DNA of 60,236 nt, the filler included, from Malassezia furfur (lineage: Eukaryota), in the NCBI GenBank assembly GCA_052055015.1. It is 5 parts of 5 records of this genome, joined end to end, with 100 filler letters (N's around TTAATTAATTAA, not from the genome) between each part and the next. Parts side by side here need not be neighbours in the genome. Positions count along the whole stretch, not along the records: positions 48,362 to 60,236 come from JBQJIT010000350.1; 4 more parts are not named here. One strand, 5' to 3'. The position numbers and the translations under genes are program-made. The notes under the pieces were generated by a model. The model was not told the origin of the DNA. It did no database searches and saw only the letters and a list, made by a program, of their open reading frames with translations. This document shows, one piece after another, positions 12,033 through 60,236 of this stretch. Position 1 is the stretch's first letter. Each line of letters begins with the position of its first letter.

Positions 12033-12132
12033 NNNNNNNNNNNNNNNNNNNNNNNNNNNNNNNNNNNNNNNNNNNNTTAATTAATTAANNNNNNNNNNNN
12101 NNNNNNNNNNNNNNNNNNNNNNNNNNNNNNNN
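12033..12132. other. Artificial contig spacer
   Basis: 44 N + TTAATTAATTAA (stops in all six frames) + 44 N. Confidence 0.99.
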
Positions 12133-19544: not shown

Positions 19545-20482
19545 CTATTCCGTATGAAGCGGGTCGCAATCCTTTTCGGAGACGTGCACGGTCAACTCGG
19601 GGAGCTGCTCGCGCAGCAGCGGCGCAAACAGCGAGCGGAAGAAGCGGCGCTCGGTGTTGCTGTGGTTCGTCAGGATGACCGAGATGCCCTGAGCCACGGC
19701 GGCGAGCACCTCGTGGTGCCCGAGCTCGCCCGTGACCCACACGTCTGCGTCCTTGGCCTGACGGAGCACACTGCCGCCGCTTCCCGCGCACACGGCGACG
19801 CGGCGCATCGGCGTGTCGTCCGACACGTCCTGGCCAAGCGCGACGTGCACGGCGTCAATGGCGAAGTGCTCCTTGGCGCGCGCGATGAGCGTGCGGATGG
19901 GCACGGGCTGGTCGAGCGAGAACACGCGCCCCATGCCCTCGGTTTCCGTGCGTGCGTTGGGGATGGGCTCGATGGGCTGGGCCTTGGTGCCCTCGCGCAC
20001 GGCCTGGTAGAGAGTCTCGTCGAGGAGCGGCTCCTTTTCCCAAGCGTGCTGGAGCCCCGCGACGATCCAGTCGTTGATGCCGCCGTCGATCGCGTCGAGG
20101 CACGTGTGTGGGCAGTAGATGCTGATGCCCGCGGCGACGAGGCTGAGGATGGAGCGCTGCAGCGGCTGAGCGAGCGTGAGCGAGCGCACCGGGCTGAAGA
20201 TGACCGGGTGGTAGATGATGGCGGTGTTCACGTCGGGCAGTGCGAGGGCCTCTTCGGCGACGTCCGTGGTGAGGTCCACGGCGAGAAAGACGCCGCGGCC
20301 GGTGCGGGGCACGGGCGATTCTGGGTCAGGGTGCGTGGGTGCGTACGGGCAATCAGGCCGACATTGTCCCAGCTGCCAGCGAGGCGTGTGGGTGCTGTGT
20401 GAGACGCACCGCAATGCGTACCGATGAGCTGCAAGAAGTCGACGACGCGGCGCAGCGTCGGGTCGCGTGCGAGGTGGGCCAT
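19545..20482 (-). CDS. NIF3: NIF3/YbgI-family protein; introns 20395-20421, 20321-20346
   Basis: Spliced: APTRLAGSWDNVGL..., AVDLT, IIYHPVIF, IYCPHTCLD, AVCAGSG, TGELGHHE, HSNTER. Confidence 0.92.
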
Positions 20483-20550: not shown

Positions 20551-23500
20551 ATGCACGGCGGGGGCAGCGCGGCCGACGGCATGCGCCGCGTCGTGGAGGA
20601 GGCCGAGGCGGCCGGCAAGCGGCTGGGCGACCCGGTGAAGACGATCGAGGACAAGTGGATGCTGCTCCCCGCGTTCCTGCAGGTGAAGGGGCTGGTGAAG
20701 CAGCACATTGACTCGTTCAACTACTTTGTGGACGTCGACCTGCAAAACATCCTGCGCGCGAACGAGCGGGTCACGGTACGTGTGTGTGCGCTGACGGCAG
20801 TCGGACATCGACCCCAAGTTCTACCTCAAGTACACCAACATCTCGGTCGGGCGCCCCGAGCGCGCGGACCCCGACGCGATCGACCGGAGCATTACGCCGC
20901 ACGAGTGCCGTCTGCGCGACATTACGTACAGCGCGTTCATCTACGTGGACATTGAGTACACGCGCGGCGGCAAGATTGTGCGGCGCAAGAACGTGCCGAT
21001 CGGGCGGCTGCCCATTATGCTGCGGAGCAACAAGTGCTGGCTCGCGGGCCAGGACGACGCGGCGCTCGCGCGCATGAACGAGTGCCCGCTGGACCCCGGC
21101 GGGTACTTTGTGGTGAAAGGCACCGAGAAGGTGATTTTGGTGCAGGAGCAGCTGTCCAAGAACCGCATCATCGTCGAGGCGGACGCGCGCAAAGGCCTCG
21201 TGCAGGCGTCGGTCACCAGTTCGACGCACGAGCGCAAGTCGAAGTCGTACGTGCTGACCAAGCACGGCCTGATCTATGTCAAGCACAACTCGCTGCACGA
21301 AGACATCCCGATCGTGGTCGTGTTCCGTGCGCTCGGCATCCAGTCGGACCGCGAGATTCTGCAGCTGGCCGCGGGGCAGGACGAGACGTACGCGGAGCTG
21401 TTTGCGGTCAACCTGGAGAAGGCCGCGAAGCTCGAGGTGTTTACGCGGCGGCAAGCGCTCGAGTACATTGGCGCGCGCGTCAAGATCATGCGGCGCGGCG
21501 TCGGCCTGCGGCGGTCCACGGTGGACGAGGCGCTCGATGTGCTTGCGACGGTCATCATGGCGCATGTGCCGGTGGAGAACTTCGACTTCCGGAACAAGGC
21601 GATCTACATCGCGGCCATGGTGCGCCGCGTGCTCGTGTGCATGGTGGACGAGAGCAAGGTGGACGACCGTGACTATGTGGGCAACAAGCGCCTCGAGCTG
21701 GCCGGCCAGCTGCTCGCGCTGCTGTTCGAGGACCTGTTCAAGAAGTTCAACCACGACCTCAAGACGAACATCGACAAGGTGCTCAAGAAGCCGAACCGCA
21801 CCGCCGAGTTCGACGCGTACAACCAGTTCTTCTACCACGGCGACTACATCACCGCGGGCTTTGTGCGGGCGATCTCGACGGGCAACTGGAGTCTGAAGCG
21901 CTTCAAGATGGAGCGCGCGGGCGTGACGCATGTGCTGTCGCGCCTGAGCTACATCAGCGCGCTCGGCATGATGACGCGCATCAGCTCGCAGTTTGAAAAG
22001 ACGCGCAAAGTGTCCGGCCCGCGCGCGCTGCAGCCGAGCCAGTGGGGCGTGCTGTGCCCCTCGGACACGCCCGAGGGCGAGGCGTGTGGGCTCGTCAAGA
22101 ACCTCGCGCTGATGACGCACATCACGACGGACGTCGACGAGGCGCCGATCGTCAAGCTGTGCTACACGCTCGGCCTCGAGGACATCAACCTGCTCACCGG
22201 CGCCGAGCTGTACCAGCCGTCGATGTACGTCGTGTACCTCAACGGCAACGTGCTCGGTGTAACGCGCACGCCCCAGCGCTTTGTCGCGCAGTTCCGGCGC
22301 GTGCGCCGCGGCGGGCACGTGTCGGCGTTTGTGGGCATCTACACCAACGCGCACCAGCGCACCGTGCACATTGCGTCGGACGGCGGGCGCATCTGCCGCC
22401 CGATGATCATCGTCGAGCGCGGGCAGCCGCGCGTGCGCAGCGAGCACATGCACGCGCTGCAGGCGGGGCGCATGGTGTTTGACGACTTTCTGCGCGCGGG
22501 CCTCGTCGAGTACCTCGACGTGAACGAGGAGAACGACAGCAACATTGCGCTGTTCGAGCACAACATCCACGCGAACACGACGCACCTCGAGATCGAGTGC
22601 TTCACGATCCTCGGCGCGGTCGCGGGCCTCATCCCGTACCCGCACCACAACCAGTCGCCGCGCAACACGTACCAGTGCGCGATGGGCAAGCAGGCGATCG
22701 GTGCGATTGCGTACAACCAGCTGAACCGCATCGACACGCTGCTCTACCTCATGGTGTACCCGCAGCAGCCGATGGTCAAGACCAAGACGATCGAGCTGAT
22801 CGGCTACGACAAGCTGCCCGCGGGCCAGAACGCCATGGTCGCGGTGATGAGCTACTCCGGCTACGACATCGAGGACGCGCTCGTGCTGAACAAGGCGTCG
22901 CTCGACCGCGGCTTTGGGCGCTGCCAGGTGATGCGCAAGCAGTCGACCGTCCTGCGCAAGTACGCCAACGGCACGTTTGACCGCCTCGCGGACGCGCCAC
23001 TCACCGACGCCGGCGAGCGCGTGCGTCGCTTCGAGGCGCTCGAGCCCGACGGCATCGCGGGCGCCGGCGAGCGCCTCGAGCCGGGCGACGTGTTTGTCAA
23101 CAAGCAGACGCCCACGAACGCCAACGACAACAGCGCCGGCACGATGCTCGACACCGCCGTGATGTACAAGAGCGCCCCGCTCTCGTACAAGGCGCCCGTC
23201 GAGGGCTACGTCGACCAGGTGCTCGTGAGCGACACCGACTCGGACCAGACGCTCGTCAAGGCGCTCATCCGCCAGACGCGCCGCCCGGAGCTGGGCGACA
23301 AGTTCTCCTCGCGCCACGGCCAGAAGGGCGTGTGCGGGCTGATCGTGCAGCAGGAGGACATGCCGTTCACCGACCAGGGCATCTGCCCGGACATCATCAT
23401 GAACCCGCACGGCTTCCCGTCGCGCATGACCGTCGGCAAGATGATCGAGCTGCTCGCCGGCAAGGCGGGCGTCATCGACGGCTCGCTGCAGTACGGCACG

Positions 23501-24160: not shown

Positions 24161-24260
24161 NNNNNNNNNNNNNNNNNNNNNNNNNNNNNNNNNNNNNNNN
24201 NNNNTTAATTAATTAANNNNNNNNNNNNNNNNNNNNNNNNNNNNNNNNNNNNNNNNNNNN
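24161..24260. other. Artificial contig spacer
   Basis: N44-TTAATTAATTAA-N44. Confidence 0.99.
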
Positions 24261-31206: not shown

Positions 31207-33633
31207 ATGAGTTTGGCAGCGACCCCGTCGTCGCCGTCGTCGGTCGGCAGCCGCGACGAATATGGACGCGACGAGCCATCCAGTCCTTCCTGGGCGGGGG
31301 ATGCAGCGTCTGGTGCTGAAGACAGCGATGCGGCGTTGTCAAGTGATGACGGAAACGAGGCACTCGAGTTGTCGCAGGCAAGCGTGCGGCCCAAGATTAA
31401 GTTCAAGCGTGACCTTGCCGCGCTTGATGAGGGCACCGACACAGATGCACCGGCATCAACGAGCCGTGCAACGCCATCTGTGTCACCGGCGCCCGGTACG
31501 CCGTCGATCTCAGGGACAGGTGAGAAACGCAAGCGGCCGATCAAGCAGCTGCGTGCGAAACCGCTTCGTGCGGCGCTTGAGTCGCTACTCGCCGCGTTCA
31601 AAAAGTAAGTCAATGATGACTGACCTAGACGCGACCCATACCAGTTCTTCCACGAGCCGGTGAATGCGGATGAAGTGCCTGGCTACCGGGAGGTCATTAC
31701 CCACCCCATGGACCTTGGCACGATGGAGAAGCGGCTTGCGGAACAATACTATACAAGCATGGATGCCTTTCGACACGACTTCTTGCTCATCACGCAAAAC
31801 GCTCAAACGTTCAATCCGCCGACGTCCATTTATCACACCGCTGCGCGGCGGCTCGAAACGTGGGGCGTCCGTGCCATCGAGCGCGAAGGACTGAGTGTAG
31901 TGGATGACGACGCCTTTGTCGCCGAGGCGCCACCGCGCCCCCCACCGACCGCATCACGTCGCGGCCGGCGGCGGACAATGGATCGTACGCGCCGCGATAC
32001 GTCCGCCGGAGCAGCCGGCAATGACGAGCTGGGTCCGGGCAGTCCGTATACGTCCGAGTCCGGCGGACGGCGGACGGTGCGAATCGGCAGTGCGCGAAGT
32101 ACCCCGTGGTCAGCCACACCGCCGGCCGGTGTGCCGGACACGTACGAGACGCGCCTCTTTCGTCGTACATTGGCGTATGCCGGAGTCTCGCCGCATACAC
32201 TCACAGGCAAGAGTGCGTGTGCGGCGCGTATGCAAGAGAAACCCAAGGTGCGGCTTGGCCCGATCCCAAGCTTTTTGGCCGAGCCCAATGGGGCTCAGAG
32301 CCAGGGCGAGGCCAGCGACGAAGCGCTGCCGGTGCAGAACTATACCTACATGGATGACGGGTCGCTCGACCCCGCGCGTCTCGCGAATACGTACGAGTAC
32401 ATGGCGCAGGCTCTGGGACCGGCGACGCTTGTGTGCCCTCGCATCGAGTCGCTGCGGCATCTACCCATGTCGCTCGCCATGCCGAACGCAAGCAACCCTC
32501 AAGCCGAGGCAAGTTTCGTGTTTCCTTCGATGCAACCAGGTCGTCCCGACCCGTTAAGCGCCGCGACGTTGGCGCAGCCCGGGCCGAGCGAGGAAAATTG
32601 GAGCCATACATTCCAAGGGACCAGCGTCCCATCCAAGGATCGCCTGCTTCCGTTTGCCGTGGCCGGTGCGCCGCCGCCGCCTGGCCTTGCACAGGGCACC
32701 GCGGCGCCGAACGAGGCACGGGGGCTTCACCCCGTGTGGCCTGTCGCCCCGCCGCCGCCGATCCAGGACCCGCTGCAGTCTGGCCTGCGGTTAAACCGCC
32801 GCGAGCGCGAGCTGGAGCAGGAGCGCGACGAGCAAAACTGGACGTTTTTCCGCCCACATCTGCAGCGCCTGTTAGGTGCCGCGGACGTCGGGCTGTATAC
32901 CAATCTTCCTGCGTGGGCCGCATCGACCACCGATGGGCGTGCATTGCGACCGTTTGCGCAGGTCGCTGGTACGCATCTGACCGATGCCCTGCGCGAGCAT
33001 CTGCGTGCGATGCCGTACAGTGCGCTGGGTCTGCCGCGCACCGCACAGTATGTGCCGCGCACCTCGCTTCGGCAGCTGCCTGCGGCGCTACAGATCTCGA
33101 TGCAGGGCGCACAAGAGGCCGAGCGTCTGCTGGAGGTCGTCTATGGCGGCGTACAGGGTATGGCATTTGTGCGCTCCATCGCCGAGTTTGTCGGTGGCGC
33201 TGCGGCATCATGTGCGCCCGACGTGCCAGTCCGCGCCGGGAAGTCGGAGCCGGGGGCGTCGCCGGCCCCCGTGATCAAACGCGAGGCATCGGTCGAAGGC
33301 GATACGCTGCCCAAATCCGACGACGGTGCAATGGCGGTGCCATCCCCACGTGCGGATACTCTGCCGACGTCGTTGGTGGAGTACGTCAAGACGGACCTTG
33401 TGCGGCCGCTTACCGGCGGCCTGCTCGAGCTGCTCGAGCGGGTGGGCGAGCATTTGGCGCAGGTGGACGTTGGTCCTACGCCCGCGTCGCCGCACGACGA
33501 GCCGCTGTACACGCTGCTGGATGATCCAGAGGGTGCAGTATCGACAGCACTATGGCGCGCGCTGCACCCGGACGCGGCAGCGCCTGCGCCGCGGCTCAAC
33601 GAGGTGCTGGCGCGTGTGCTGCCATCTACGTAG
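31207..33633 (+). CDS. Bromodomain protein (BRD7/BRD9-like architecture); intron 31605-31628
   Basis: Spliced: FKKRDPYQFFHEPVNADEVPGYREVITHPMDLGTM...NAQTFNPPTSIYHTAA. Confidence 0.85.
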
Positions 33634-34653
33634 GCACATCGGTTTTGTAGTCGCGCCCGATCAAGTCGGCGCGGTGCGCAAGCTGTGTCTCGCTGGGGCC
33701 AAGGCCGAAGCGGTGCGTCGCATCATCGCCAACGCGTGCGAGTTCTTCGCGAAGAAACGCAGCGAGATGACTGCGGAGCGCCGCGTACGTCGGCGTATCC
33801 TCCGAGCGCAATGTGGCAGGCCGTGCGGGGTACAAGTCGTCGGGCGACGTACGCGACGACAGAGCGGGGAGCGCATGGGCAACTTTGGCGACGCTCATGT
33901 GCTCCCGCTGGGTATATAGGTTGACGTAGGGCTGGAGGAGCGCAGGCGCAATGGGCTCGCCAAACGTCACGGTGATCTCGGCACCAAGCCGCGGCAGGAA
34001 ACGCGGCGCGCGACGGTGCTCTGGCATTACCTGGTCAAAGCCTGTGAGCCACAGGGGGACCACCACGGGTGTCTTGGGAGCCTCGAGAACAAGACGTGCG
34101 ACGCCCCACTTGAAGCGGCGCATGCGCGTCGACTGTGTCAGGTTTACGGCGCCCTCGGGGAACAGATGCACCCAGCGCGTCTCGCCAAGCTTGGTGAGAG
34201 CCGTATCGATGGCTGGCTGGAAAATGCCACGCCCCCGAAAGGTCTCGAGGGTCTGGCCCTTGTTGAAGAAGGCGGACATGGCGCTACGTGAGCCGATGCA
34301 CGACGTACGCGTTTTTAAAAATAATGTCGCTCGCGCCGAGGCTCCAGCGCGTAAAATAGGGGTCGCGGAAGAGCGCGGCAGGGAGCGTGCCCCAGACGAG
34401 CGGCTCATCGAGTCTGTGTGTGAGTATCGCACATACACCGAGATGTGGTTGCTATCTGGGGTGAGCGGTGCACGTACAGGTTAGGACGCCGCGGCCTTCG
34501 GCGATGCGCTGCCTGTCGTTGAGCACGCGGACGAAACGGTCGATACCATGCGTGCGCACACGTTTGCACCCTGCGGCCAGGAACCAGCGCGAGAGGCGCG
34601 CAACCGCCTCTGTCGTGAGCGAGACACGTACGAATCACCTGGCGCTCGAACAT
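33626..34653 (-). CDS. TAZ1: Tafazzin (cardiolipin transacylase); introns 34610-34631, 34456-34477, 34414-34436, 34284-34308
   Basis: Spliced: RGVLTYSNHISVLDEPLVWG...RWSLGASDIIF...RGRGIFQP...WVHLFPEG...FKWGVARL. Confidence 0.93.
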
Positions 34654-36216: not shown

Positions 36217-36316
36217 NNNNNNNNNNNNNNNNNNNNNNNNNNNNNNNNNNNNNNNNNNNNTTAATTAATTAANNNNNNNNNNNNNNNNNNNNNNNNNNNN
36301 NNNNNNNNNNNNNNNN
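36217..36316. other. Artificial contig spacer
   Basis: N44-TTAATTAATTAA-N44. Confidence 0.99.
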
Positions 36317-40463: not shown

Positions 40464-42004
40464 ATGGCCAGCGTCGTTGCAATCTTGGATGTCAAGGGCA
40501 AGCCGTTGATCCAACGCTCGTACCGGGACGATGTCGATTCATCGGCGATCGAACGATTCCTGCCCCTTGTGCTCGAAATTGAGGAAGAACATGGTGCTGG
40601 AGCCGTCCAGCCGTGCATGACTTCTCAAGGCGTGAATTACATGCATGTGCGGCACAACAACCTGTATCGTGCGTATTATCGCTCTCACACAGTCCTCGCC
40701 CTATCGAGACGCAACTCCAATGCTGCCGAGATTCTGCTCTTCCTGCACAAACTCGCCTCCGTGCTGGAGGAATACTTCAAGCAGCTTGAGGAAGAATCCA
40801 TTCGTGACAATTTCGTCATCCTGTACGAGCTACTGGACGAGATGATGGATTTTGGATACCCACAGACAACGGAGAGCAAGATTCTGCAAGAGTATGTGTG
40901 CATTACTCACCTAGGTATATTACCCAGGAATCGCACAAGCTCGAGCTCCAAGTGCGACCGCCTATGGCCGTCACCAATGCCGTCTCGTGGCGGTCGGAGG
41001 GCATCCGGTATCGCAAGAATGAAGTGTTTTTGGACGTGGTGGAGAGTGTCAACCTTCTAGTGAATGCCAACGGCCATGTCGTGCGGAGTGAGATTGTGGG
41101 TGCGGTCAAAATGAAATGCTATCTTTCTGGCATGCCCGAGCTCCGTCTCGGTCTCAATGACAAGGTGATGTTCGAAAGCATGGGTCGAAGTACGTACACT
41201 GGCGCTGACAAAGCCTCGCGCGGAAAGGCAATTGAGATGGAAGACGTCAAGTTCCACCAGTGTGTGCGCTTGTCTCGTTTCGAGAACGATCGTACAATTT
41301 CCTTTATTCCGCCCGATGGCGAGTTTGAGCTGATGAGCTATCGCCTGAACACTCAAATCAAGCCTCTGATTTGGGCAGAAGCCGTTGTTGAACGGCACGA
41401 AGGCAGTCGCATCGAGTTCATGGTCAAGGTGAAGGCCCAGTTCAAGCGTCGGTCCACGGCGAACAATGTTGAAATCTTTATTTCTGTCCCGGAGGATGCC
41501 GACTCGCCCAAGTTCCGCGTACGTTTCGCCCGAAGCTGACCCAGGCCGCGATTGGATCAGTGACCTATGCGCCAGAGCTGTCTGCGATGGTGTGGAAAAT
41601 CAAGCAGTTGGGCGGCGGCAAGGAATACCTCATGCGCGCACACTTTGGTCTGCCCAGTGTCCGCAACGGTATGTGCCTGTGTTTGACTGACCGTTCAGAG
41701 GAAACGCTAGCGCGGCGCACACCGATCAACGTCAAGTTCGAAATACCCTACTTTACCGTGTCCGGCATCCAGGTGCGCTACCTGAAAATTGTGGAGAAGT
41801 CTGGCTACCAGGCACTTCGTACGTATTGCGTGTGCCTAGGGCGTGGACATGGCTAACACAGCAATCGTGCAGCATGGGTTCGCTACATCACACAGGTACG
41901 TTGTGATCCTTGTCTCCACAGGACTAACACGGCAGAATGGCGAATACGATCTGCGGACACAGACGGAAAAGTCTCAGGCCCGTCTCGCTCATTTCTCTTC
42001 GTAG
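40464..42004 (+). CDS. APM1: AP-1 clathrin adaptor mu subunit; introns 40669-40692, 40892-40914, 41190-41213, 41519-41544, 41669-41698, 41819-41872, 41896-41935
   Basis: LEEESIRDNFV, MMDFGYPQTTE, VTNAVSWR, KNEVFLDV, FHQCVRL, SFIPPDG, YFTVSGIQVRYLKI, GYQALPWVRYITQNGEY. Confidence 0.95.
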
Positions 42005-48261: not shown

Positions 48262-48361
48262 NNNNNNNNNNNNNNNNNNNNNNNNNNNNNNNNNNNNNNN
48301 NNNNNTTAATTAATTAANNNNNNNNNNNNNNNNNNNNNNNNNNNNNNNNNNNNNNNNNNNN
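48262..48361. other. Artificial contig spacer
   Basis: N44-TTAATTAATTAA-N44. Confidence 0.99.
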
Positions 48362-48546
48362 CGGCGCGGACGCTGCTGCACCGCACGGGGGGGCAGCGCG
48401 CCGGGCTGTACGGCGCCACGACGCCCGGGCGTACGCCGCGCACAGCGACGCGCGAAGACGCGGCGCGGCAGAGCCGCATCGGTGCACAGCGCTGGACCCC
48501 TGCGCCGAGCCCCGCGGCAAGCCCCGTGGTGCGTCGTGATCCGTAG
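48362..48546 (+). CDS. 3' end of a gene, possibly the ESS2/DGCR14 splicing factor
   Basis: Open frame ARTLLHRT...TPGRTP...RWTPAPSP...DP* ending at TAG 48544-48546. Family assignment is a weak resemblance only. Confidence 0.4.
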
Positions 48547-48560
48547 ACGGTCTATGCCAG

Positions 48561-49631
48561 CTAGATACCCCAAATCATGACCTTAGCATCCCAGCCGCCC
48601 GTCGCAACGGAGCCGCCCGTCGGACTCACCCGCACGCACGCGATCCGTGCGTCGTGGCCGCGCAGAACGCCGATGCGTTCGGAGCGGAGGGTATCCCAGA
48701 GCTGTGCGTCGTTGTCCTCCGAGGCGCTCACGAGCACACGCCCCGACTTGGAGAACGCGACGGACGTCACGCCTGCGTGGTCCGTGCCGTGCGAATAGTT
48801 GGCCAGCTCGCGGTTCGCCCGCATGTCGAACAGGCGGCTCGTCGCGTCGTCTGAGCCGGTCGCGATCGCGAAGCCGTCCGGAAAGTAGTCGACGGCATTC
48901 ACGTCGCGTGCGTGCCCCGCAAACATCTGCACGGGGTGTGTAGTGCGTGTGTCCCAGATAAAGGCGCGCGCATCGCACGAGCCAGACACAAAGAGGTGGG
49001 GGTCCTTGGGCGAGAGGGCGACGCTGGTGACGTCGCCCATGTGCCCGGTAAAGTGCCGTATGCGGCTCTCGGTCTCAATGTCCCACAGCGCACACGTCGC
49101 GTCGCCGGAGCCGGTGACCATCTCGCGGTCGCTGCGGAAGCGGCAGGCACTCACGTATGCCGTATGGCCGATCAGCTCGCGCGCGACGGGCACCTCGACG
49201 ACCGACTGTTTCCGCCGGAGGTCATACACGCTGCAGACGTTGTCGAGCCCACCGGAGGCGATGAGGTGCCCCGACGGCGCGTACGCACATGACATGACCC
49301 AATTCATGCGCAGCGTCACGGCCTGCACCTTGTGGCCGGTGTACGCATTCCACAAAATGAGGTGGCCGTCCTGCGATGCGGACAGCAGATGCAGGCCGTC
49401 TGAGGCCCAGTCGACCGCATACACCTTGGCATTCGGGCACCGGAGCACGTTGCGCCGTTTCAGCGCGAGCATGCGCAGCGACGGCACATTTGCAGCAGCC
49501 GCGCGTACTGTGTCAGGGGTCGACGTACATGTTGTATCAGATAGGCTTGCATTTCTGCTCTGAATTCGGTCCTTCAGCAGATCGGATTCGATCCGCGCAG
49601 CAGCAATCGCATCCTGCAGCGGGGCGGCCAT
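48561..49631 (-). CDS. GPB1: Heterotrimeric G-protein beta subunit; probable in-frame intron 49508-49528
   Basis: SASQDGHLILWNAYT, WVMSCAYAPSG, GGLDNVCSVY, TGSGDATCALWD, SGSCD, ATGSDDATSRLFD. Confidence 0.94.
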   Translation of the reverse strand: MAAPLQDAIAAARIESDLLKDRIQSRNASLSDTTCTSTPDTVRAAAANVPSLRMLALKRRNVLRCPNAKVYAVDWASDGLHLLSASQDGHLILWNAYTGHKVQAVTLRMNWVMSCAYAPSGHLIASGGLDNVCSVYDLRRKQSVVEVPVARELIGHTAYVSACRFRSDREMVTGSGDATCALWDIETESRIRHFTGHMGDVTSVALSPKDPHLFVSGSCDARAFIWDTRTTHPVQMFAGHARDVNAVDYFPDGFAIATGSDDATSRLFDMRANRELANYSHGTDHAGVTSVAFSKSGRVLVSASEDNDAQLWDTLRSERIGVLRGHDARIACVRVSPTGGSVATGGWDAKVMIWGI

Positions 49632-49714
49632 CGCCCAGGCAATGCACGACGCTCACGAGGCCGCGGAGTAGCGCCCACTTCGGCCGAACCCGCGCACGTC
49701 CGTCGGCCTCCACC

Positions 49715-52700
49715 ATGGCACTGCGCGGTGAGCCGCGCGCGCAGCGGCGGTCCGCGTTCGAGCACTTTGACGAGAGCCGCTGGCTCACGGGCGTGCGTGA
49801 GCGCCTCCGTACGGCGCTGTGGGAGCATGCCGAGCCACTCGATACGGTAGCGCCCCCCGCGCCCCCCGAGCACGACGACGTCCCCGAGGATCCACACGCC
49901 AAGGCGCATATGCAGCGCGCGTCGGACGCGATGCAGGAGCTGCTTGCGCTCGGTGGCATCGTCGATGAAGAGCACAATAGGCCTGTGCGTGTGGACGGCT
50001 TTGCAGAACGCGTATGGCGCGTCGATCAGCCGCCAGAGGAGTCGACACCCTCGTCGCTCTTCTCTGCATTCGACCGCGGGACCGGCGTCGACATTGATGC
50101 TTTGCTCCAGTTCCGTATGCAGGCGGCCGAGCGGGAGGAGGCACGAGCTGATGCGCCAAAGCCAAAAAAGCCGAAGCCTATGATTGAAGAGATTGGCTCG
50201 GATACGCGAGAGAGCGCGCGGGAGACGGAAGAAAGCAGCGAGAGCGAGGAGAGCGAGAGCGAGAGCGAAGAAAGCGAGGAGGGCGAGGAGGGCGAGGAGA
50301 GCGAGGAGAGCGAGGAGAGCAAGAGTGACGAGAGCGAAGAACGCGACGCAAGCGATGCGTACGACGAAGAGGACGAACTCGTCGACGACCAGGGACGTGG
50401 TGCATCTCAGGTTCAACCGGAAGCTGACGATACACATGTCCTTCCCGCCGCACATGACTCACCCTCCCACCATGCCGAAGGACCTTACGAGGACGACCAA
50501 GACGGCGAAGAGTACGGCTCCGAAGAAGAGGGCTACGATGACCATGACGAAGGCGAGTACAGCGAAGAGGCAGACGAGGACGATTTGGCGCCGACATCTA
50601 GCCACTATGATGCAGACGAGCCGCTGCATGACTCGGAATCCATGTACGACTCTGCGTCGTATCCGTCGGTGCCATCCACCGACCGCTTCATGATGCGTCC
50701 ATCGGCGCTTCTGTCGAAGCAGACCCATGCGCGCCCGTCGTATGCATCACACCGTGGGCAAGAAGACTCGCCAATCGTTGTACTTTCCGAGAGCGAGGAC
50801 GAGGAGCGCATCGACGAGGCAGCTCCTGATGACGAACGTGCCGAGTGGTCCGATGCGACGCAGCGTTCGGAGGAAGAGTTTACGGACGACTCGCATACAG
50901 AGGAAGACGACGAGGCAGAGGAAATGGGCGAGGAGGACGAGGAAGACGGGGCTCATGCGCCAATGCCAGAGCATTCCGATGAGGCGGAAGCGGCCTCTGA
51001 AGACGAGATGGACGATCCTGATGGACCACGTCCTGCCGGCGATGCAACCATGGAGACGGGCGAGACAGACGACGCCATGCGGGAAGATCATGGCGAAACA
51101 GTCGTGGCACAAGCGCCTGGGCCATCAGCGATGCAAGAGACAGGGACGGCTGCAGAAGACACCGCAGTAGACGCTGGAGCGGCGAAAGGCGGCCTAGACC
51201 CTGCCCATCCCCACAACACACTCGACGAAGACGAACGGGCCGGGGAGGACGTCCAAGACAGCGCCGAAGCTCATCCCCCGATGGAGGACGGTGCCGAACT
51301 GGACGCCAGGGAGGACACTGCCCCCGCGACTGACCCAGACAAGGAGGATGCCGAGGCTGTCTCGGATGCACGCACGGCTGCACCACATGAGGACCACGCC
51401 GAGAACCATCCCTCTTCGCCGATCCGCTTCTCGAAAGAGGCGCACGACGAGGCGCAACAAGCAGGACACTCTGCCGATACCTTTGCGCGCGAGTTGGCGT
51501 CCGAGATGGGATTGGAGATGCCACTGTCTATGCCTGAGGTGTCTGGCGCCATTGCCGAGGATGCATGGCCGTCGTTCGCCCATACGCTGCATACGGGAGC
51601 GCCGCTTTCGGCGCCGCTTTTGCTGGATGACGAGGGCCATCCACGCTTTGACATGTCGGCTCTGCTGCATGACGAATATGCAGAGGCCCACGGCCACGAA
51701 GGGTCTCACCGTATGCCGCTGCGGTACGGTGCGCTGCCTATGGACGATCGCGAGGCCGGCGAGGCAGCGGAGGAAGACAAACCAACCGAGGCACATCCAG
51801 ACAAGGCACCTACGGAGCTGGCTTCCCAGACAGTGAGCCGCGCATCCACACCGGCAGATGCCGAAGAGGACGGTGTGGCTGCATCAGAAGACGCCGAAGC
51901 CGCCGAGGAAGACGATGCAGGCGTCCCGGAGAGTGTGGACGCTGCCAACGATGCTGCCGGCGCGGCGGACGTCGTTCATGCTACCAACGACGATGTTCCT
52001 ACCAAGCAAGATGTAGAAACAGCCTCTGTCGACGGTGCAGTTCCCGCAGAACTGGGCACGGCCCAAAAGGAGGAGGCCGCGCAGTTGGACGCAGAGACCG
52101 CGGAGCGCCGCACCAATGTGGAGGCCCAGGACGAGGAAGGCCGTGCGCGACCCACCTCGCCGCGTGCTGTCGACGCCAAGTCGGATGAGGCGTCCCCCTC
52201 TTCGCGTGGAGATCACGGCCCAGATGTGGCTGAGCCCAACACCGAGTCCGAGATACCCCAGGACGGCGATCATTCCGCCGACCAAGTCGAGGCGGCACTG
52301 CCGAAACGCGGCGCCGTAACCACCTCGCAGGCCCATGCGGCACACACGAGCCGGCATGCGTCGGACGGCCCGATTACGCGGTCACACTGTACACTGCAGC
52401 GCGTCACTTTGCTGCGCGAAGCGGGCGCGCCGACGTTCCTGGTGCCGTCGTGCGCATTGGACACCGAGACGCTGGACGAGGAGGGCGCCGAGAAGCAGGA
52501 CCTATTTACCGACCAGCTCGAGATGATGCCGCTGGACCCTGGGGCGCTGCCCGAGCCAGTGTACCACGCGCTGTGTCGCATTGTGAGCCCGAGTTTGTTG
52601 GATGATGTGTATGTGACACCGAGCTCGCTGGGGGCGCAGTGGATGGCGCAGGACGATTCCGACACCGCGTCTGACAGTGCATCGCTGCACGATGACCAGG

Positions 52701-52972
52701 ACGTACCCCCCGCTCATGCGGTGCGCCAGACGTACAGCCGGCGCCACCGCCGTCCGCGCAAGTCGGACCCGAGCAGCGACGTGGCCAACTATGTACCCCC
52801 CGAGACGGCGCCGCACCGGCCCTCATCGCCTGCCGACGTCTCGATCGAGGAGCTCGAGGCGCTGGCGGAGCCGTCGCCCAAGCGTGCGCGCACGTCGGCG
52901 TCGCCGCCGCCACGGATGCAGCTGCGCACGGCGCGTGAGCGGCGGCGCACGCGGCGCTTCTCGCCCAGTTAA
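49715..52972 (+). CDS. Large acidic, probably disordered protein of unknown function
   Basis: 1085-codon ORF from CACCATGG; E/D-rich tracts; small folded-looking C-terminal block; basic NLS-like C-terminus. Confidence 0.75.
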   Translation: MALRGEPRAQRRSAFEHFDESRWLTGVRERLRTALWEHAEPLDTVAPPAPPEHDDVPEDPHAKAHMQRASDAMQELLALGGIVDEEHNRPVRVDGFAERVWRVDQPPEESTPSSLFSAFDRGTGVDIDALLQFRMQAAEREEARADAPKPKKPKPMIEEIGSDTRESARETEESSESEESESESEESEEGEEGEESEESEESKSDESEERDASDAYDEEDELVDDQGRGASQVQPEADDTHVLPAAHDSPSHHAEGPYEDDQDGEEYGSEEEGYDDHDEGEYSEEADEDDLAPTSSHYDADEPLHDSESMYDSASYPSVPSTDRFMMRPSALLSKQTHARPSYASHRGQEDSPIVVLSESEDEERIDEAAPDDERAEWSDATQRSEEEFTDDSHTEEDDEAEEMGEEDEEDGAHAPMPEHSDEAEAASEDEMDDPDGPRPAGDATMETGETDDAMREDHGETVVAQAPGPSAMQETGTAAEDTAVDAGAAKGGLDPAHPHNTLDEDERAGEDVQDSAEAHPPMEDGAELDAREDTAPATDPDKEDAEAVSDARTAAPHEDHAENHPSSPIRFSKEAHDEAQQAGHSADTFARELASEMGLEMPLSMPEVSGAIAEDAWPSFAHTLHTGAPLSAPLLLDDEGHPRFDMSALLHDEYAEAHGHEGSHRMPLRYGALPMDDREAGEAAEEDKPTEAHPDKAPTELASQTVSRASTPADAEEDGVAASEDAEAAEEDDAGVPESVDAANDAAGAADVVHATNDDVPTKQDVETASVDGAVPAELGTAQKEEAAQLDAETAERRTNVEAQDEEGRARPTSPRAVDAKSDEASPSSRGDHGPDVAEPNTESEIPQDGDHSADQVEAALPKRGAVTTSQAHAAHTSRHASDGPITRSHCTLQRVTLLREAGAPTFLVPSCALDTETLDEEGAEKQDLFTDQLEMMPLDPGALPEPVYHALCRIVSPSLLDDVYVTPSSLGAQWMAQDDSDTASDSASLHDDQDVPPAHAVRQTYSRRHRRPRKSDPSSDVANYVPPETAPHRPSSPADVSIEELEALAEPSPKRARTSASPPPRMQLRTARERRRTRRFSPS

Positions 52973-53009
52973 CTCGGTAGTGGTTAGTCAGCCCTCGACC
53001 CAGACGACC

Positions 53010-53618
53010 ATGACTTCGCTGTTGCGCCGCGCCGCGGCCCGGACGCCGCCCGTGCGGGCGGCGCGTATGTACAGCGCCCAGTCGCTTCCGCCCATGGAGG
53101 AAATCCGTGCGGAGCAGGAGCGGCGCGAGCAGGAGATCCGCGAGGCGGAGAGCGCCGTGGCGGCGCTCGGCTTCCCGGAGCAGGGCATCCTCCGGCAGCC
53201 GGTCGCGTGGGCGGACGTGGACCAGTTCCGCCATGTGAACAATGCGCACTACATCCGCTGGCTTGAGAATGGGCGCATGCACTGGCTTAAGCAGCTGTCG
53301 CGTAACCTGCCGCAGTCGTTGTACGAGGACATTGAGCAAGGCCGCAACATTGGCGTGATCCTCGCGACCAACTACTGCCGCTACCGTCGCCCGCTCAACT
53401 ACCCCGACACGGCGCTCGTCGGTACGGCGGTGCAGATGCCGCTCGAGCGCAACGACCGTTTCAAGACGCGCTCGGTGATCTACTCCGTGAACCAGCGTGC
53501 GGTGGTCGCCGACGGCGAGAACGACGTTGTGGCGTACGATTACAACAAGTTGCAGAAGACGCCGATGCCGCAGGCGCTGCGCGACGCGCTCGAGGCGTGG
53601 GCCTACCGTGGAAAATAG
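53010..53618 (+). CDS. Hot-dog-fold acyl-CoA thioesterase (4HBT-like), probably mitochondrial
   Basis: PVAWADVDQFRHVNNAHYIRWLENGR, YRRPLNYPD, VAYDY; Arg-rich N-terminus. Confidence 0.88.
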   Translation: MTSLLRRAAARTPPVRAARMYSAQSLPPMEEIRAEQERREQEIREAESAVAALGFPEQGILRQPVAWADVDQFRHVNNAHYIRWLENGRMHWLKQLSRNLPQSLYEDIEQGRNIGVILATNYCRYRRPLNYPDTALVGTAVQMPLERNDRFKTRSVIYSVNQRAVVADGENDVVAYDYNKLQKTPMPQALRDALEAWAYRGK

Positions 53619-53652
53619 GTTCATTACATACGTTTCAATGGGTATTGCTAAC

Positions 53653-55338
53653 TTACACCGAGATCGTCTTGAAAAAGTGGAAGCCGTCGGCGCTCGTGCT
53701 GCCGAGCATGCCGGGGATCTGCGGGTGCCAGTGCACCTCCTTGATCTCGGACGCGCCGTGGTGGCAGAAGAGCAGCTGGCTCGGCACGGGCTCGCCGTTC
53801 GGGCCCTTGGGCAGCTGCGACGCGTCTTCGTCCTCGTCGCGCTCCACGGCCAGGTCCCAGAGCGTCACCTGGTCGTCGCGGCCGCTGGCCGCAAAGATGC
53901 TGTCCTCCTCGCGGTTCCACTCCACCGAGCTGATCGGGCCCTGGTGCCATTCGAAGTGCGCGACGGGCGCCGCCTTTTGCTTTGCCTGGAAGTTGCGCAT
54001 GTCCCACACGTTCAGTGCGCCTTCGTCGCCGCCCGACAGCAGCAGGTACTGCGTACCGTGGTTCCAGCTGATCACGTTGACGTCCTGCGCGTGGGCCTCC
54101 TCGATGGCGAGTGCGGAGCGGCGCGACTTGACACGCACGTCCCAGATCCGGATGCTCCGGTCCGCCGAGCACGACGCAAACACGGTCGGCTCCGACGGGC
54201 TCCACTGCAGGTCCTCGACGCTGCTCGTGTGGCTCTCGAACGGCTGCGGGTTCGTGGTGAAGCCCGTGTTGTTGCTCGTGGTCAAGAAGATCTTGCTGTG
54301 AATGTCGCCAGTGACGAGGCGCAGGTGGCCGCCCTTGCTGCTCGAGCCGCCGCCCAGCAGACCGCCCCAGTCCATCGCATAGCCCTCGACACCACGGTGC
54401 GCCTCGACAGTGTACAACGGGGTGTGTGCGCGCTTCTTGTCAAACGTTGTGCCTGGGTTCTGCAGCACGTTGTACAGCGGCCGTGCGTCAAAGATGGGCA
54501 CTTTGCCCGTCTCAGACCAGACGGCCACCGGGTATGGGTCGAGGCACACCTCGAGGTCCGACGTCGGCGTCGACGTCGGTGCCGCACGCACGCGGTTCAC
54601 TGCACCGAGCGTCGGGATCGTGCGGTACTCGAGGACGGCGTCCTCATCGACGTCGTCGTCATCGTCATCGTCGTCGTCCGAGAGGTCTGTGGTCAGCATG
54701 CTCTTTCGTGCAAGGCGACGGCGTCCGCAGCAGGCTCAGTGGTAAAAAGTTAGGTAGCGAGTTTGTTTTCGGCATCGAGCAAGAGCTCATACAGCCAAAT
54801 GCCTCAAGGCATCCTCGCCGCCGCGGACGCTGTCGCTCCGGTACGTACCATCGTCCTTGGACGTGCGGTGCATGGAGCTGGCCTTCATCACCAGCACCTC
54901 GTTGTTCTTGGCGACGTCCGCCTGCGTGCCCGTGACCAGGTAGGCGGTGTGTGGGAATGCCTGGCGCTGGTTGCCCAGGTTGTCGCGCAGGAAGTCGAAC
55001 GACAGACACGGCCAGGTGACGTTCATGCGGTGCAGCATGTGGTATGCTGACTGGTCCGGCACGAGCGTCTGGCCCTCGGGCAGGGGCTTGCTGCCTGGCA
55101 TGTATGCCTCGGTCGGTGCGGGCTCCTCGTCGTCGTCGTCGCCAAGCTCCTGAATCTTGCCGTGGAGCGGCTGGCCGTCGATGTCCATGGTGTCTTCGTC
55201 GGCCGCGTCAACGACCTCACCCTCGTCGCTCTCGATCTCGTCCTCAAAGGGGTCCTCGAACTCCCCCATCTCATCGTCGTTCTCGACCTGCTTGCGCGCA
55301 GGCCGGTCCTCCGGCTCGGCCAACTCGCGCTTCGACAT
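53653..55338 (-). CDS. RRB1: Ribosome assembly WD40 protein Rrb1/GRWD1; one 162-nt intron 54687-54848
   Basis: [16 protein letters not shown]...[53 protein letters not shown]. Confidence 0.94.
54733..54819 (-). ncRNA. snR13: Intronic box C/D snoRNA, snR13/U15-type (guide for LSU rRNA AGCCAAAUGCCUC)
   Basis: C-like box AGGATGC (54809-54815), D box CTGA (54736-54739), 13-nt antisense GAGGCATTTGGCT (54793-54805), GCTACCT (54752-54758), ~20-bp flanking stem. Ends approximate. Confidence 0.8.
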
Positions 55339-55409
55339 GGTGCAAAGGCAAAGAGCCTGCCTCGCACGCTTTTCCGATTTTTCTTCCGGCCGGGCAAAAA
55401 AAAAGCGGC

Positions 55410-55416
55410 TGAGTCA
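55410..55416. promoter_or_regulatory. TGA(C/G)TCA Gcn4/AP-1 site (contains the Bas1-type TGACTC)
   Basis: TGAGTCA 37 nt upstream of the ADE5,7 ATG, next to an A9 tract. Confidence 0.5.
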
Positions 55417-55453
55417 GCGTGTCGGCGCCGCGGATGCACGGCCTGCCGCTACG

Positions 55454-57862
55454 ATGTCGTCCCTCCGTGCTCTCATTCTCGGCGCCGGTGGCCGCGAGCA
55501 TGCGCTGGCGCTGCACCTGCTGCGCTCCGACCGCGTGGAGCATGTGTACGTTGCGCCCGGCAATGGCGGCACCGCTGTGATGGGCGACCGCTGCTCGAAC
55601 GTCACGTCGCCGAAAGCGTCGGGCGACTTTAGTGCGATTGCACAGTGGGCGGTCGAGAACAACGTGAACCTCGTGGTGCCTGGCCCCGAGGCGCCGCTGG
55701 TCGAGGGTGTGGAGTTTGCGTTCCGCAAAGTGGGCATCCCCGTGTTCGGCCCGTCGCCCGTCGCGGCGCAGATGGAGGGCTCCAAGAAGTTTGCCAAGGA
55801 GTTTATGGACCGGCACAACATCCCCACGGCTGCGTTCCGCTCGTTCACGGCGTCGCAGGTGGACGAGTGCATGCGCTTCATTGCCGAGCTTGGCGGCGCC
55901 AAGAGCGTCGTGCTCAAGGCGAGCGGCCTGGCGGGCGGCAAAGGTGTTCTTCTGCCCGAGACCGAGGAGGAGGCCAAGGAGGGTGTCGAGGACCTCTTGG
56001 TGAAGAAGGTGTTTGGCGACGCGGGCGACGCGCTCGTGGTCGAGGAGCGCCTCGACGGCTCCGAGCTGTCCGTGCTAGCGTTCTCGGACGGGTACACGGT
56101 GCGTGCGCTGCCTGGCTGCCAGGACCACAAGCGCATCGGCGAGGGCGACACGGGCCTCAACACGGGCGGGATGGGCGCCTACTGCCCGACGCCCGATGGC
56201 ACAGCGCCCGGCATGGAGGAGCGCATCCGCAACGAGGTGCTGCTCCCGACGATTGCCGGCATGCGCAAGGACGGCTACCCGTTCGTGGGCATGCTGTTTG
56301 TCGGCCTGATGCTCACGTCCAAGGGCCCCAAGGTACTCGAGTACAATGTACGCTTCGGTGACCCCGAGACCGAGGCGGTGCTCGAGCTGCTCCAGCCGGC
56401 CGGCGCGCTCACCGACATCCTGATGGCGTGCGTGGAGCGCCGCTTGGACTGTGCGGAATTCTCCATCCTGCCCGGCTACGCGGTGAGCGTCGTGATTGCC
56501 AGCGGCGGCTACCCCGGCAAGTACGCGACGGGAGTCCCGATGACGATCGATACGCTGCCCAAGGGCGTCACCGTGTACCATGCCGGGACACGCCTCGAGA
56601 ACGACCAGTTGGTCACTGCGGGAGGGCGTGTCGTCGTGGTGAGCGCGACGGGTGAGACGCTCGAGGAGGCGCTGCAGCACGCGTACGACGGCGTGCGGTG
56701 CGTGCATTTTGACGGGATGGTGTACCGCCGCGACATTGCGCACCGCGCGCTGGCTGCCGCGAAGCAGCAGCGCGACGCCGGCCTGACGTATGCTGCGGCG
56801 GGCGTCGACATCGACGCCGGCAACGCGCTGGTGGAGCGAATCAAGCCGATGGCCAAGAGCACGCAGCGCACGGGGTGCGTGGGCCACCTCGGCGGGTTTG
56901 GCGGCGTGTTTGACCTGGCCGCGCTCCAGTACCGCGACCCGGTGCTGGTGAGCGGCACGGACGGCGTCGGCACGAAGCTGCGTGTTGCGCTCGACTACGG
57001 CAAGCACGACGCGATCGGCATCGACCTTGTGGCGATGTCGGTCAACGACCTGGTCGTGCAGGGTGCGCAGCCGCTCTACTTCCTCGACTACTTTGCGTGC
57101 TCCAAGCTCGATGTCGACACTGCTGCGCAGGTGATCTCGGGCGTCGCCGAGGGCTGTCGCCAGGCGGAGAGCGCGCTGATTGGCGGCGAGACCGCCGAGA
57201 TGCCCGGCATGTACGTGGGCGACGAGTACGACGTGGCGGGCTTTGCGGTCGGCGCCGTGGAGCGCTCAGCGATTCTGCCGCGCACCGACGTGATGCAGGC
57301 GGGCGACAAGCTGCTGGGTCTGCGCAGCAGCGGCGCGCACTCGAACGGCTACTCGCTGCTGCGCAAGTGTGTCGCGCGGGCGCAGGCGTCGCTCGATGCG
57401 CCGCCGCCGTGGGGCGCGCCCGGCTCGGTAGTGGCCGGTGTCGAGACGCCCACGACGCTCGGTGATGCGCTGCTTGCGCCGACGCGTATCTATGTGAAGC
57501 CGCTGGCGTTTGTGCTGCGCTCTACGGACCACGACGTGCTGGGTCTTGCACATATCACCGGCGGTGGCTTCACCGAGAACGTGCCGCGCATGCTGCCCAA
57601 GCACCTCGGTGCGCACATCGACCTCGGTGCGTGGGAGCGCCCGCCGCTGTTCCCGTGGGTGCAGCGTGCGGGCGGCGTTGCACCCGAGGAGATGGCGCGC
57701 ACGTTCAACAACGGCATCGGCATGGTGCTGGTGGTGCCTGCGGCGAAGGCGGACGCGGTGCTTGCGCAGCTGCGTGACGCCGGTGAAGATGCCGTGGCGA
57801 TGGGCGAGCTGACGTCGACGCCCGGCGTGTCCTATAGCGGCCTTGACGGCTGGCGTGTGTAG
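55454..57862 (+). CDS. ADE5,7: Bifunctional GAR synthetase / AIR synthetase
   Basis: [83 protein letters not shown]. Confidence 0.97.
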
Positions 57863-57980
57863 ACGCACACACAGGGGAAGCGGCAAACAGGCACGCGGCG
57901 CGCGTGCAGGCGCAGCACGCTGGGGTTCGGCCGATCCGCGTCGCGTACGTATCTCCACACGACGGTTCGGGGCATTGGCC

Positions 57981-60236
57981 ATGGTCTTCCGTGAGCCACC
58001 GATCGAGATGGACACGCTCACGTCGCATGTGCCTGAGGACGCGGTGCGCGACAAGCCGCCGAGTCCGACGTTCGTCACGACGGAGTTGGGTGTGTCGCCC
58101 AAGTCTGTGGCGCTCATGCGGAGCGGCATGGAGCGTTCGGGGTGGACGCTGTGGATGCTCACTGTGTGTGCCGGCCTGTCCGGCTCGCTGTTTGGTTACG
58201 ATACGGGCTACATGTGCGTGTGTGCTTGGCTGACGCAGCTCGTCCGTGCTTGTCAGCGTCGGCTCCGACCTCGGCCACCCGCTGACCGACTGGCAGAAGG
58301 AGATGGCGACGTCCTCGACGTCGCTCGGCGCGCTCATCGGCGCGCTGTTCGCGGGCTTCCCCTCGGACTGGTTTGGGCGCAAGGTAGTGATTGCGATCGC
58401 CAACGTTGTGTTTATTGTCGGCGCCGTCGTGCAGGCGGCCGCGCACAACATCGGGACGCTGATCGCCGGGCGCTTCGTTGTGGGCATCGGCGTGGGTGTC
58501 GCGAGTATGATTGTGCCCGTGTGGATCGGCGAGCTGGCGCCGACACACCTGCGTGGGCGCCTGGTGACGCTCAACGTGGCGTTCTTGACGCTCGGCCAGG
58601 TGATCGCGAACGGCGTCGGCGCCGGGTTCGTCGACGTGCACGGCGGCTGGCGGTACACGGTGGCCGGCGGCGCCGTCCCCGCGATTGTGTCGCTGATCAG
58701 CATGTCGTGGCTGCCCGAGTCGCCGCGGTTTGACGGGCGCAAGGGGCGCGTCGACAAGGTCGCGCGCACCTTCCGGCGCATCTTCCCCGACGCGAGCGAA
58801 GAGTACTGCCGCATGCGCGCCGAGGAGGTGTGCCGCAGCGTGCAAGAGGGCCCCGCGGACGGCAACGGTGTGCACCAGCACTCGCTGCGCACGCGGCTGC
58901 GCCTGCTGCTCACGGGACCGAACGCGCGTGCGCTGGCGATTGCCGCGGGGCTGCAGGCGCTGCAGCAGCTGTCCGGCTTCAACACGCTGATGTACTACAG
59001 CGCGACCATCTTTGAGAGCGTCGGGCTCAAGAGCCCGGTGGCCGTGTCGATGGTGGTGAGTGTGACCAACTTCCTCGGCACGCTCATTGCGTTCTGGTTC
59101 ATCGACATTGTCGGCCGGCGGCGCGCGATCATCTACACGGTGCCGATGATGAGCGCTGCGCTGGTGTTCTCGAGCATCTGCTTCTACTACGTGGTGCCCG
59201 GCACGCCGTCCAAGATCACGCCCGACATGCCGATCAACCACGTGTGGGCCGACCTGCTGATCGTGTCGTTCATCTTCTACGTGTTCTTCTATGCGCTGGG
59301 CCTCGGCAACGTGCCGTGGCAGCAGGGCGAGCTGTTCTCGATCGAGACGCGCGCGATCGCGACGAGCATCGCGACGGCGACCAACTGGGGGTGCAATCTG
59401 ATGATCAACGCGACCTACCTGTCGCTCAGCAACGCCATCACGCCGTCGGGCGCGTTTGGCTTCTACGCGGGGCTGTGTGCGCTCGGCGCGGTGCTGTGCA
59501 TCTTCGGCTTCCCCGACACGCGCCAGCTGTCGCTCGAGGAGGTGCACTACATCTTCCGGCACTCGTGGGGCATCCGCGAGGCCGACCGCCTGCGTGCCGA
59601 AAAGGCCGAGATCGCCGAGCGCGCGCGCGCGCGCGACCTCGACGCGGACGACACGCAGTCTGCGCTCGCCCTGTTCACGAGCGGCGCGCCGCGGCGGTGG
59701 CAGTCGGACGGGCACGCGACGCCGCGCCCGGCGGACCTGGACAAGGACGACGACGTGCGCATCGAGACGCGCTCCGTGCTCGAGACGCCCGACGCCAAGA
59801 TGCGCGTCGACCCGCTCGAGGCGTGGAGCGACGACGCGCCGCGCGCCTCGACGTCGACGTCGCGCATGAGCGGCAGCACGCCGGCGGCCATGCCGCTCCA
59901 GGTCCCGCCGAGCGCGCAGGAGGCGCCTGCGACGTCGCCGCCGCCCATCGAGCCGATGCGCCGCTCCATGTCGCTGCCGTACGGCGTGTCGCACGCCTCG
60001 TTCGAGGGCATCCGCCCGCCGCCCGTCGAGCTCGACGCGAGCACCAACCCACTGTCGCGCGCGGGTATCCGCGGGAGCTCGCTGATGCTGTTTGTGACGT
60101 GCTTTGCGAGTCTCGGCGTGTTCTTGTTCGGCTACGACCAGGGCGTGATGAGCGGCATTCTGACGCACCCCGCGTTCCTCGCCTACTTTGCGCACCCCAC
60201 CGCGTCGCAGATCGGCACCATGGTCGCGATCCTCGA
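57981..60236 (+). CDS. MFS sugar porter: complete ITR-like transporter fused in frame to the N-terminus of a second sugar porter; intron 58214-58238; runs off the window
   Basis: LFGYDTGYISSVL, DWFGRK, GELAP..LRGRL, PESPR, QQLSGFNTLMYY, GNVPWQQGELF, PDTRQLSLEEV, then no stop and SLGVFLFGYDQGVMSGIL...IGTMVAIL. Confidence 0.88.

Follow-up and report, generated by a model that had tools for sequence, protein, structure and literature searches.

The DNA analysed here (the window, 60,236 nt) carries on its minus strand a gene with two coding exons separated by one intron. The coding part of exon 1 (54849–55338, 490 nt) encodes an acidic N-terminus and a CAF1C_H4-bd domain (Pfam PF12265), and exon 2 through the stop codon (53653–54686) encodes a WD40 propeller, as judged by translation, Pfam and protein matches. 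Removal of the intron gives a protein of 508 amino acids. Among the best 120 of 2,349 database matches, the closest named relative was the M. psittaci “Ribosome assembly protein rrb1” (94% identity), and on this basis the host gene was assigned to RRB1 and the organism to the genus Malassezia. The acidic N-terminus, the CAF1C_H4-bd domain, the propeller and the nearest named relatives, all RRB1, agree with membership in the RRB1/GRWD1 family. A PDB sequence search with the host protein returned RBBP4 and other WD40 proteins, with no RRB1 among the 60 matches listed.

The minus-strand intron (54848–54687) reads as GT..AG, 162 nt, phase 1, as the preliminary description had proposed. Its 5′ splice site is GTACGT (54843–54848), and the first eight bases are identical in all four introns compared below. 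From the consensus, the branch site is predicted to be CTGAC (54692–54696), 6–7 nt upstream of the intron end, with the counterparts CTCAC (L002) and CTAAC (L081 and L084). Retention of the intron leaves the frame intact and adds two in-frame stop codons. A database protein of 428 amino acids (P0003) matches, without any difference, a stretch of the spliced product that begins at residue 80 and crosses the exon junction, while its longest contig (1,355 nt) is shorter than the 1,449 nt needed if the intron were included. Because P0003 matches across the junction on a contig this short, we infer a spliced RRB1 transcript and take both splice sites to be supported; read from the sequence, 54848–54687 is thus a real RRB1 intron whose splicing is shown indirectly by P0003.

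That this is the only long intron of the window, as had also been claimed, was not confirmed: a rough splice-signal scan, which misses introns, gave 24 candidates. Inspection of 13 other long candidates revealed no convincing long intron and no C/D layout with a guide (both predictions from sequence), and at least four of them end in a nested intron of 21–26 nt. Nine candidate short introns of 21–26 nt with clear splice signals were predicted in the window (49508–49528, 58214–58238, 20321–20346, 20776–20800, 31605–31628, 40892–40914, 642–665, 7970–7995 and 34284–34308). The introns of M. sympodialis have a mean length of 30 nt (PMC5389616).

RRB1 lies head to head with a GARS-AIRS gene (ADE5,7 type, Pfam), 115 nt (55339–55453) separating the two start codons, and the same arrangement is found in L002 and L081. 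This spacer contains A-tracts and, in the window and L002, the motif TGACTCA (a one-base variant in L081), which we take to be a Gcn4/AP-1-type site. A second copy of the region (G000:C175; L002, L126 and L127) is 92% identical to window positions 48364–60236 over 7.6 kb and 73–88% identical elsewhere; its RRB1 looks intact, with 98–99% protein identity. The assembly comprises 13.7 Mb in 1,856 contigs and, judging from this second copy, may represent a hybrid or a diverged diploid. Four identical spacers at steps of about 12 kb (12033–12132, 24161–24260, 36217–36316 and 48262–48361), each a 12-nt TTAA repeat flanked on either side by 44 N, are artificial contig joins, so gene order across them was not taken as evidence.

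A putative C/D box RNA within the RRB1 intron

Within the intron, the elements of a putative C/D box RNA of 80 nt from box C to box D are arranged on the minus strand. The 5′ arm of an outer stem (54817–54836) is followed by box C, AGGATGC (54809–54815; ATGATGC in L081, AAGATGC in L084), the methylation guide GAGGCATTTGG (54795–54805), an extended box D′, CTGTA (54790–54794), an inner hairpin (54776–54789), box C′, ATGCCGA (54769–54775), an A-rich spacer and the accessory guide GCTACCT (54752–54758). Downstream of these lie a U-rich run, box D, CTGA (54736–54739), and the 3′ arm of the outer stem (54715–54735). Read from the arm sequences (54836–54817 with 54735–54715), the outer stem has 19 pairs, one mismatch and one bulge, and folding of the 162-nt intron beats 200 of 200 shuffles (z = −3.27). 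The terminal boxes are thus closed by a stem; box C agrees with the consensus at 5/7 positions and keeps the GA, and box D is exact. Departures from consensus, which count against the assignment, include the final C of box C and a D′ without GA. In the inner hairpin the loop is variable and the stem is kept (longer in L081), and ATGCCGA occupies the position of C′ in the published snR13 alignment and is also aligned by a model that contains no Malassezia rows.

The guide comprises 11 nt directly before D′, within the 10–21 nt usual for a guide before box D or D′, and pairs with LSU rRNA 2277–2287 (yeast numbering); together with the first two bases of D′ it forms a perfect 13-nt rRNA complement, GAGGCATTTGGCT (54805–54793). 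Both the guide and CTGTA are invariant in the four introns. GCTACCT pairs with LSU 2271–2277, overlapping the target of the main guide, and the same element occurs in snR13. The LSU gene of this genome (L003, RF02543) contains the 17-nt rRNA target without a mismatch, which bears out the earlier claim of antisense to a conserved LSU sequence. For the yeast numbering, one offset in the genome's own rDNA accommodates 13 of the 14 residues that PMC4174444 names, and the next best offset 10. A count of five from the initial C of CTGTA leads to the equivalent of A2281, reproducing the +5 assignment made before; in yeast snR13 the first C of D′ determines the methylation site (PMC5389607). The stem of about 20 bp, AGGATGC, CTGA, GCTACCT and the 13-mer of the preliminary description were all found where it had placed them. 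Its D′ box CTGT is correctly located, and the 5-nt form CTGTA, at the position that a 5-nt D′ occupies in yeast snR13 (PMC5389607) and resembling yeast CUCGA, is to be preferred. A shifted reading, with ATGA directly 3′ of CTGT as D′, would point to C2277, which is not listed as ribose-methylated in the cited literature, and was rejected as the less likely one.

How often such complementarity arises by chance was estimated from dinucleotide shuffles. A 13-nt complement to mature rRNA alone was reached in 175 of 20,000 shuffles and a 13-nt complement with a separate adjacent 7-mer in 32 of 20,000; a looser 11 + 7 version was passed in 174 of 5,000. The window has 16 positions, in about 10 separate places, with a 13-mer complementary to the 7-kb rDNA contig. 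The rRNA complementarity is by itself only mildly unusual, suggestive and not decisive, and the case for a guide RNA rests on conservation. A second guide was also sought. The longest rRNA matches listed for the intron included none at D′ for G3771 (yeast G2288), and a guide before box D was rejected, the adjoining 12 nt being variable among the four introns and their best rRNA pairing needing four G–U pairs, one of them at the target position.

Conservation of the intronic RNA

Four introns were compared, namely those of the window, the second assembly copy (L002) and two metagenome loci (L081 and L084). The L002 intron is 94% identical to that of the window and lies in a block of about 92% identity, and a DNA search of the genome found no copy of the intron sequence besides the two RRB1 introns. 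A DNA pattern scan of metagenomes gave at least 118 loci, some only about 650 nt long, of which 11 were judged real by eye from their box motifs and 107 were dropped as chance. Two of the at least 118 loci, L081 and L084, encode RRB1 (exon 2 protein identity 78–83%) and carry the RNA in the same intron, and L081 adjoins M. caprae on an exon-2 tree. A protein-based locus search of metagenomes returned 598 stretches, none of which was confirmed.

In both L081 and L084, 61 of the 64 positions from box C to the accessory guide are identical to the window, compared with only 15–17 of 27 in the 5′ flank; between the window and L081, four-fold third positions of exon 2 are identical at 58 of 99. The stretches that do not vary among the four introns are precisely those that pair with rRNA or form boxes. 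Judged from these sequences, the RRB1 snoRNA intron is kept in two other species, in line with the conservation in relatives that had been proposed as a check. The remaining nine real loci resemble fungal snR13 outside RRB1, most of them, judged by eye, seemingly within intron 1 of a short transcript.

To look beyond Malassezia, we used database proteins in which an exon-2 reading frame called on unspliced DNA runs back into the intron, and back-translated these extensions. Of 122 proteins, 83 had an exon-1 motif, 26 extended little or not at all and four (P0064, P0082, P0089 and P0096) were dropped, their longer N-termini being spliced exon-1 sequence; nine were tested. Five extensions (P0010, P0027, P0028, P0038 and P0045) back-translate to the C′ region, 7–9 nt, the accessory guide and box D, a spacer range chosen after the peptides had been seen. 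Neither 55,866 coding residues nor 300 shuffles of each peptide gave a match in the same search, and in the P0045 extension 22 of 22 positions agree with the guide region as well. The motifs were not found in the extensions of P0020–22 and P0032, which probably start downstream of them. On the exon-2 tree (38 rows), P0010 falls within Malassezia and P0028 groups with Sporisorium and Ustilago (100/100), while P0038 and P0045 are placed close to Ceraceosorus (89/94) and P0027 close to Parajaminaea (87/97), both placements below the support threshold; the four proteins other than P0010 all lie outside the 100/100 Malassezia clade. Together with Malassezia they presumably span three classes of Ustilaginomycotina. 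On the evidence of these peptides rather than of DNA, the pairing of snR13 with the RRB1 intron very likely extends across Ustilaginomycotina. P0028 is labelled as a chicory protein and is probably a fungal contaminant, given its grouping with smut fungi.

At the gathering score, Rfam gave no match in the whole window; by E-value over 551 nt it gave four chance matches, none on the snoRNA, and over 101 nt SNORD15 at 9.7 bits (E = 2.6, to the 3′ guide of SNORD15) and sR39 (E = 2.8). The snR13 model RF01223 gave nothing genome-wide at E = 10, with no match among 53 scored candidates, and RF00067 gave three weak matches elsewhere in the genome (E = 1.3–9). The preliminary description had proposed a search with the Rfam snR13 and SNORD15 models and had named the lack of a match beforehand as one of three conditions counting against its claim; no significant match was obtained. 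The RF01223 cut-off of 47 bits, which was not reached, is the detection threshold of one model and not a feature of the RNA, and the miss is best explained, in our judgement, by model coverage. A sequence model built from nine non-Malassezia metagenome rows (R2) found the snoRNA site as its sole match in the window (E = 1.5e-5) and aligned C′, a match that is partly circular, the rows having been chosen with a pattern derived from the window. A further model (R1), applied to the window together with 99 of the at least 118 metagenome loci, gave nothing better than E = 0.35 beyond its own rows.

The outer stem and a possible role in splicing

The arms of the outer stem differ in sequence among the introns. 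The 5′ arm of the window pairs with its own 3′ arm at −40.9 kcal/mol and with that of L084 at −16.7, and the 5′ arm of L084 with its own 3′ arm at −26.6 and with that of the window at −15.2. In the window, L002 and L084 the pairing beats 1,000 of 1,000 shuffles. Pairing is thus clear in L084, of which an unconstrained fold favours another structure, and weak in L081, where 117 of 1,000 shuffles are as good, the stem has a 3-nt bulge, and the 3′ arm pairs better with the 5′ arm of the window than with its own.

Given its position, the stem could be mainly a splicing adaptor, looping the snoRNA out to leave a short distance between 5′ splice site and branch point for a spliceosome used to introns of 21–30 nt. 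In the window, L002 and L084 it begins 9–12 nt past the 5′ splice site and ends 18–24 nt before the branch A despite differing stem lengths, leaving 33–42 nt outside; the nine fungal copies outside RRB1 lie in roomier introns and show flank pairing of −1.9 to −9.0 kcal/mol, against −18.5 to −40.9 here, a comparison confounded by G+C content. The short mean intron of M. sympodialis noted above fits such a role. The 33–42 nt nevertheless exceed the 21–26-nt introns of the window, the L081 stem is interrupted by its bulge, only three species are covered, and external stems are known to aid snoRNA processing (PMC10932220), which would explain the stem without any splicing role. We therefore consider a mainly splicing function possible but doubtful; the stem may serve processing, splicing or both, and its position with the 33–42 nt outside is a lead toward a splicing role and not a result.

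A more far-reaching scenario, which we consider unlikely, is that snR13 was captured by the RRB1 intron across Ustilaginomycotina and kept through massive intron loss, and that in Malassezia the outer stem and snoRNP assembly make an intron of 143–162 nt spliceable, so that RRB1 mRNA output would be governed by how much C/D core protein is available. Were it true, scarcity of these proteins would leave the intron with its two in-frame stops in place and the RRB1 message would be destroyed. A ribosome-assembly factor would in this way be coupled to the availability of snoRNPs.

Family membership and host

For family assignment, the RNA was compared by eye with the snR13 alignment of van Nues 2011 (Fig. 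S1, PMC3116282), which has 46 rows, all ascomycetes. Element order and spacing agree with it throughout, including the surroundings of GCTACCT: the guide for A2280/A2281 lies at D′ in the 5′ half, a hairpin stands between D′ and C′, and the accessory guide lies between C′ and D. The two-element snR13 layout of the preliminary description therefore holds, with box C′ and the inner hairpin, which it had overlooked, to be added. A 5-nt D′ beginning with C is present in all four introns as CTGTA, a word that differs from those of the published rows (CTCGA, CTAGA and CTCTA; PMC3116282); one of these rows, from A. terreus, has the box C AGGATGA. In yeast snR13, overlapping 4- and 5-nt D′ boxes and the accessory guide direct methylation of A2280 and A2281 (PMC5389607), part of a cluster stabilising helices 70/71 (PMC4174444).

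Like S. cerevisiae snR13 (RF01223) and its ascomycete orthologues, the RRB1 intron RNA is predicted to be directed to 25S A2280/A2281 by a guide before a 5-nt, C-initial D′, followed by a hairpin, C′, the accessory guide GCTACCT, a short U-rich run and box D. It is shorter than S. cerevisiae snR13, with 80 nt from C to D (the Rfam model has 124 positions), and differs from it in being intronic, in its long, G+C-rich outer stem and in scoring below the Rfam cut-off. Compared with ascomycete snR13 its guide is without the extra base, and D′ (CTGTA), C′ (ATGCCGA) and box C (AGGATGC) differ. The yeast snR13 gene is independently transcribed. Layout, motifs, the RRB1 host and the guide conserved in relatives all support the snR13 identity, and we consider the RNA to be a conserved snR13 orthologue, with a probability of about 0.93.

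As an snR13 orthologue carried by the intron of RRB1 pre-mRNA, it would be released after splicing by debranching of the lariat and trimming to an RNA of about 85–90 nt. By analogy with known C/D snoRNPs, the outer stem would close boxes C and D into a kink-turn for Snu13 and Nop58, and C′/D′ across the inner hairpin would position Nop56 and fibrillarin. The guide, whose complementarity is seen in the sequence, would then pair with LSU helix 70/71, aided by the accessory guide. The ribose of the A2281 equivalent is probably methylated; for A2280, methylated in yeast, the chances appear slightly below even, being less certain because D′ here differs. Output of snR13 would be tied to RRB1 transcription, a host-intron pairing that would be old within Ustilaginomycotina.

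The non-consensus C, C′ and D′ boxes and the absent Rfam match could also be those of a degenerate remnant that no longer guides, and the two stops added by retention would allow the intron to act as an expression switch, as a conserved cis element controlling RRB1 splicing. We regard either as highly improbable. The invariant stretches coincide exactly with the rRNA-pairing and box elements, boxes of comparable degeneracy recur in the S. castellii row (D′ CTCTA, PMC3116282) as well as in other fungal copies, and the DNA search found no further copy of the sequence beyond the two RRB1 introns.

Vertebrate SNORD15/U15 (RF00067), of about 146 nt, carries an identical guide sequence directed at the equivalent adenosine (L3764), and the label “U15-type” of the preliminary description fits the target only: in the U15 alignment (22 of 46 rows) the A3764 guide adjoins the terminal box D and a second guide, for G3771, adjoins D′; here the guide precedes D′, and no G3771 guide was among the longest rRNA matches listed. 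An assignment to U15, or to snoRNAs with two guides, the second of them lying before box D, is scarcely credible, in spite of a guide that is U15-like in being without the extra base of the ascomycete rows and of an Rfam snoRNA-guide alignment that is solely to the 3′ end of SNORD15, as the guide stands here after box C and before D′ and, as described above, the 12 nt upstream of box D vary and pair poorly. On its sequence, the RRB1 intron RNA is of the snR13 type, sharing with U15 its target only.

Intronic snR13 homologues with a guide at D′ are known from other fungi. Nc CD1 of Neurospora crassa was cloned and seen on a northern blot (PMC2780460), and Cryptococcus snR13 is hosted by the non-coding transcript CNAG_12256 (bioRxiv 2024.10.08.617225) and not by RRB1 as here. 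Conserved snoRNA introns are described for RPL7 (snR59/snR39) and NOG2 (snR191) in intron-poor fungi including Malassezia (Lim et al. 2021); these are likewise kept in ribosome-biogenesis genes of Malassezia and smuts, and differ in being fungi-wide. Microsporidia also have long stem-loop introns with C/D-like motifs among very short ones (PMC6349667), in unrelated genes and lineage and with no rRNA guide assigned there. RRB1 and snR13 are unnamed in the main text and one supplement file of Lim et al. 2021, and the main text of Canzler 2018 mentions none of 2280, 2281, Malassezia or Ustilago. The literature on fungal, Malassezia and Ustilago snoRNAs, covered mostly outside subscription papers, contained no report of RRB1 as a host of snR13. 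The pairing thus appears to be unreported, although the Canzler 2018 alignments or the supplement of bioRxiv 2024.10.08.617225 may list Malassezia or Ustilago snR13; the RNA belongs to a known family and its host is apparently the new part.

Recognition of this RNA fills an annotation gap, with an snR13 missed by Rfam and its intron miscalled as protein N-termini in five database proteins (P0010, P0027, P0028, P0038 and P0045). RRB1 would likely be the third ribosome-biogenesis host intron, besides RPL7 and NOG2, in this intron-poor fungal group, and snR13 is seen to move from host to host within the fungi. A genetically tractable genus with very short introns offers a setting in which the processing and splicing roles of the outer stem may be separated, and the D′ variant bears on the model of van Nues and Watkins for methylation at two sites.

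Among the snR13-like loci outside RRB1, seven (L009, L013, L019, L047, L070, L095 and L108) have longer RNAs of 103–112 nt with an extra hairpin between the accessory guide and box D, and most of these apparently lie within intron 1 of a transcript in which no reading frame is evident.
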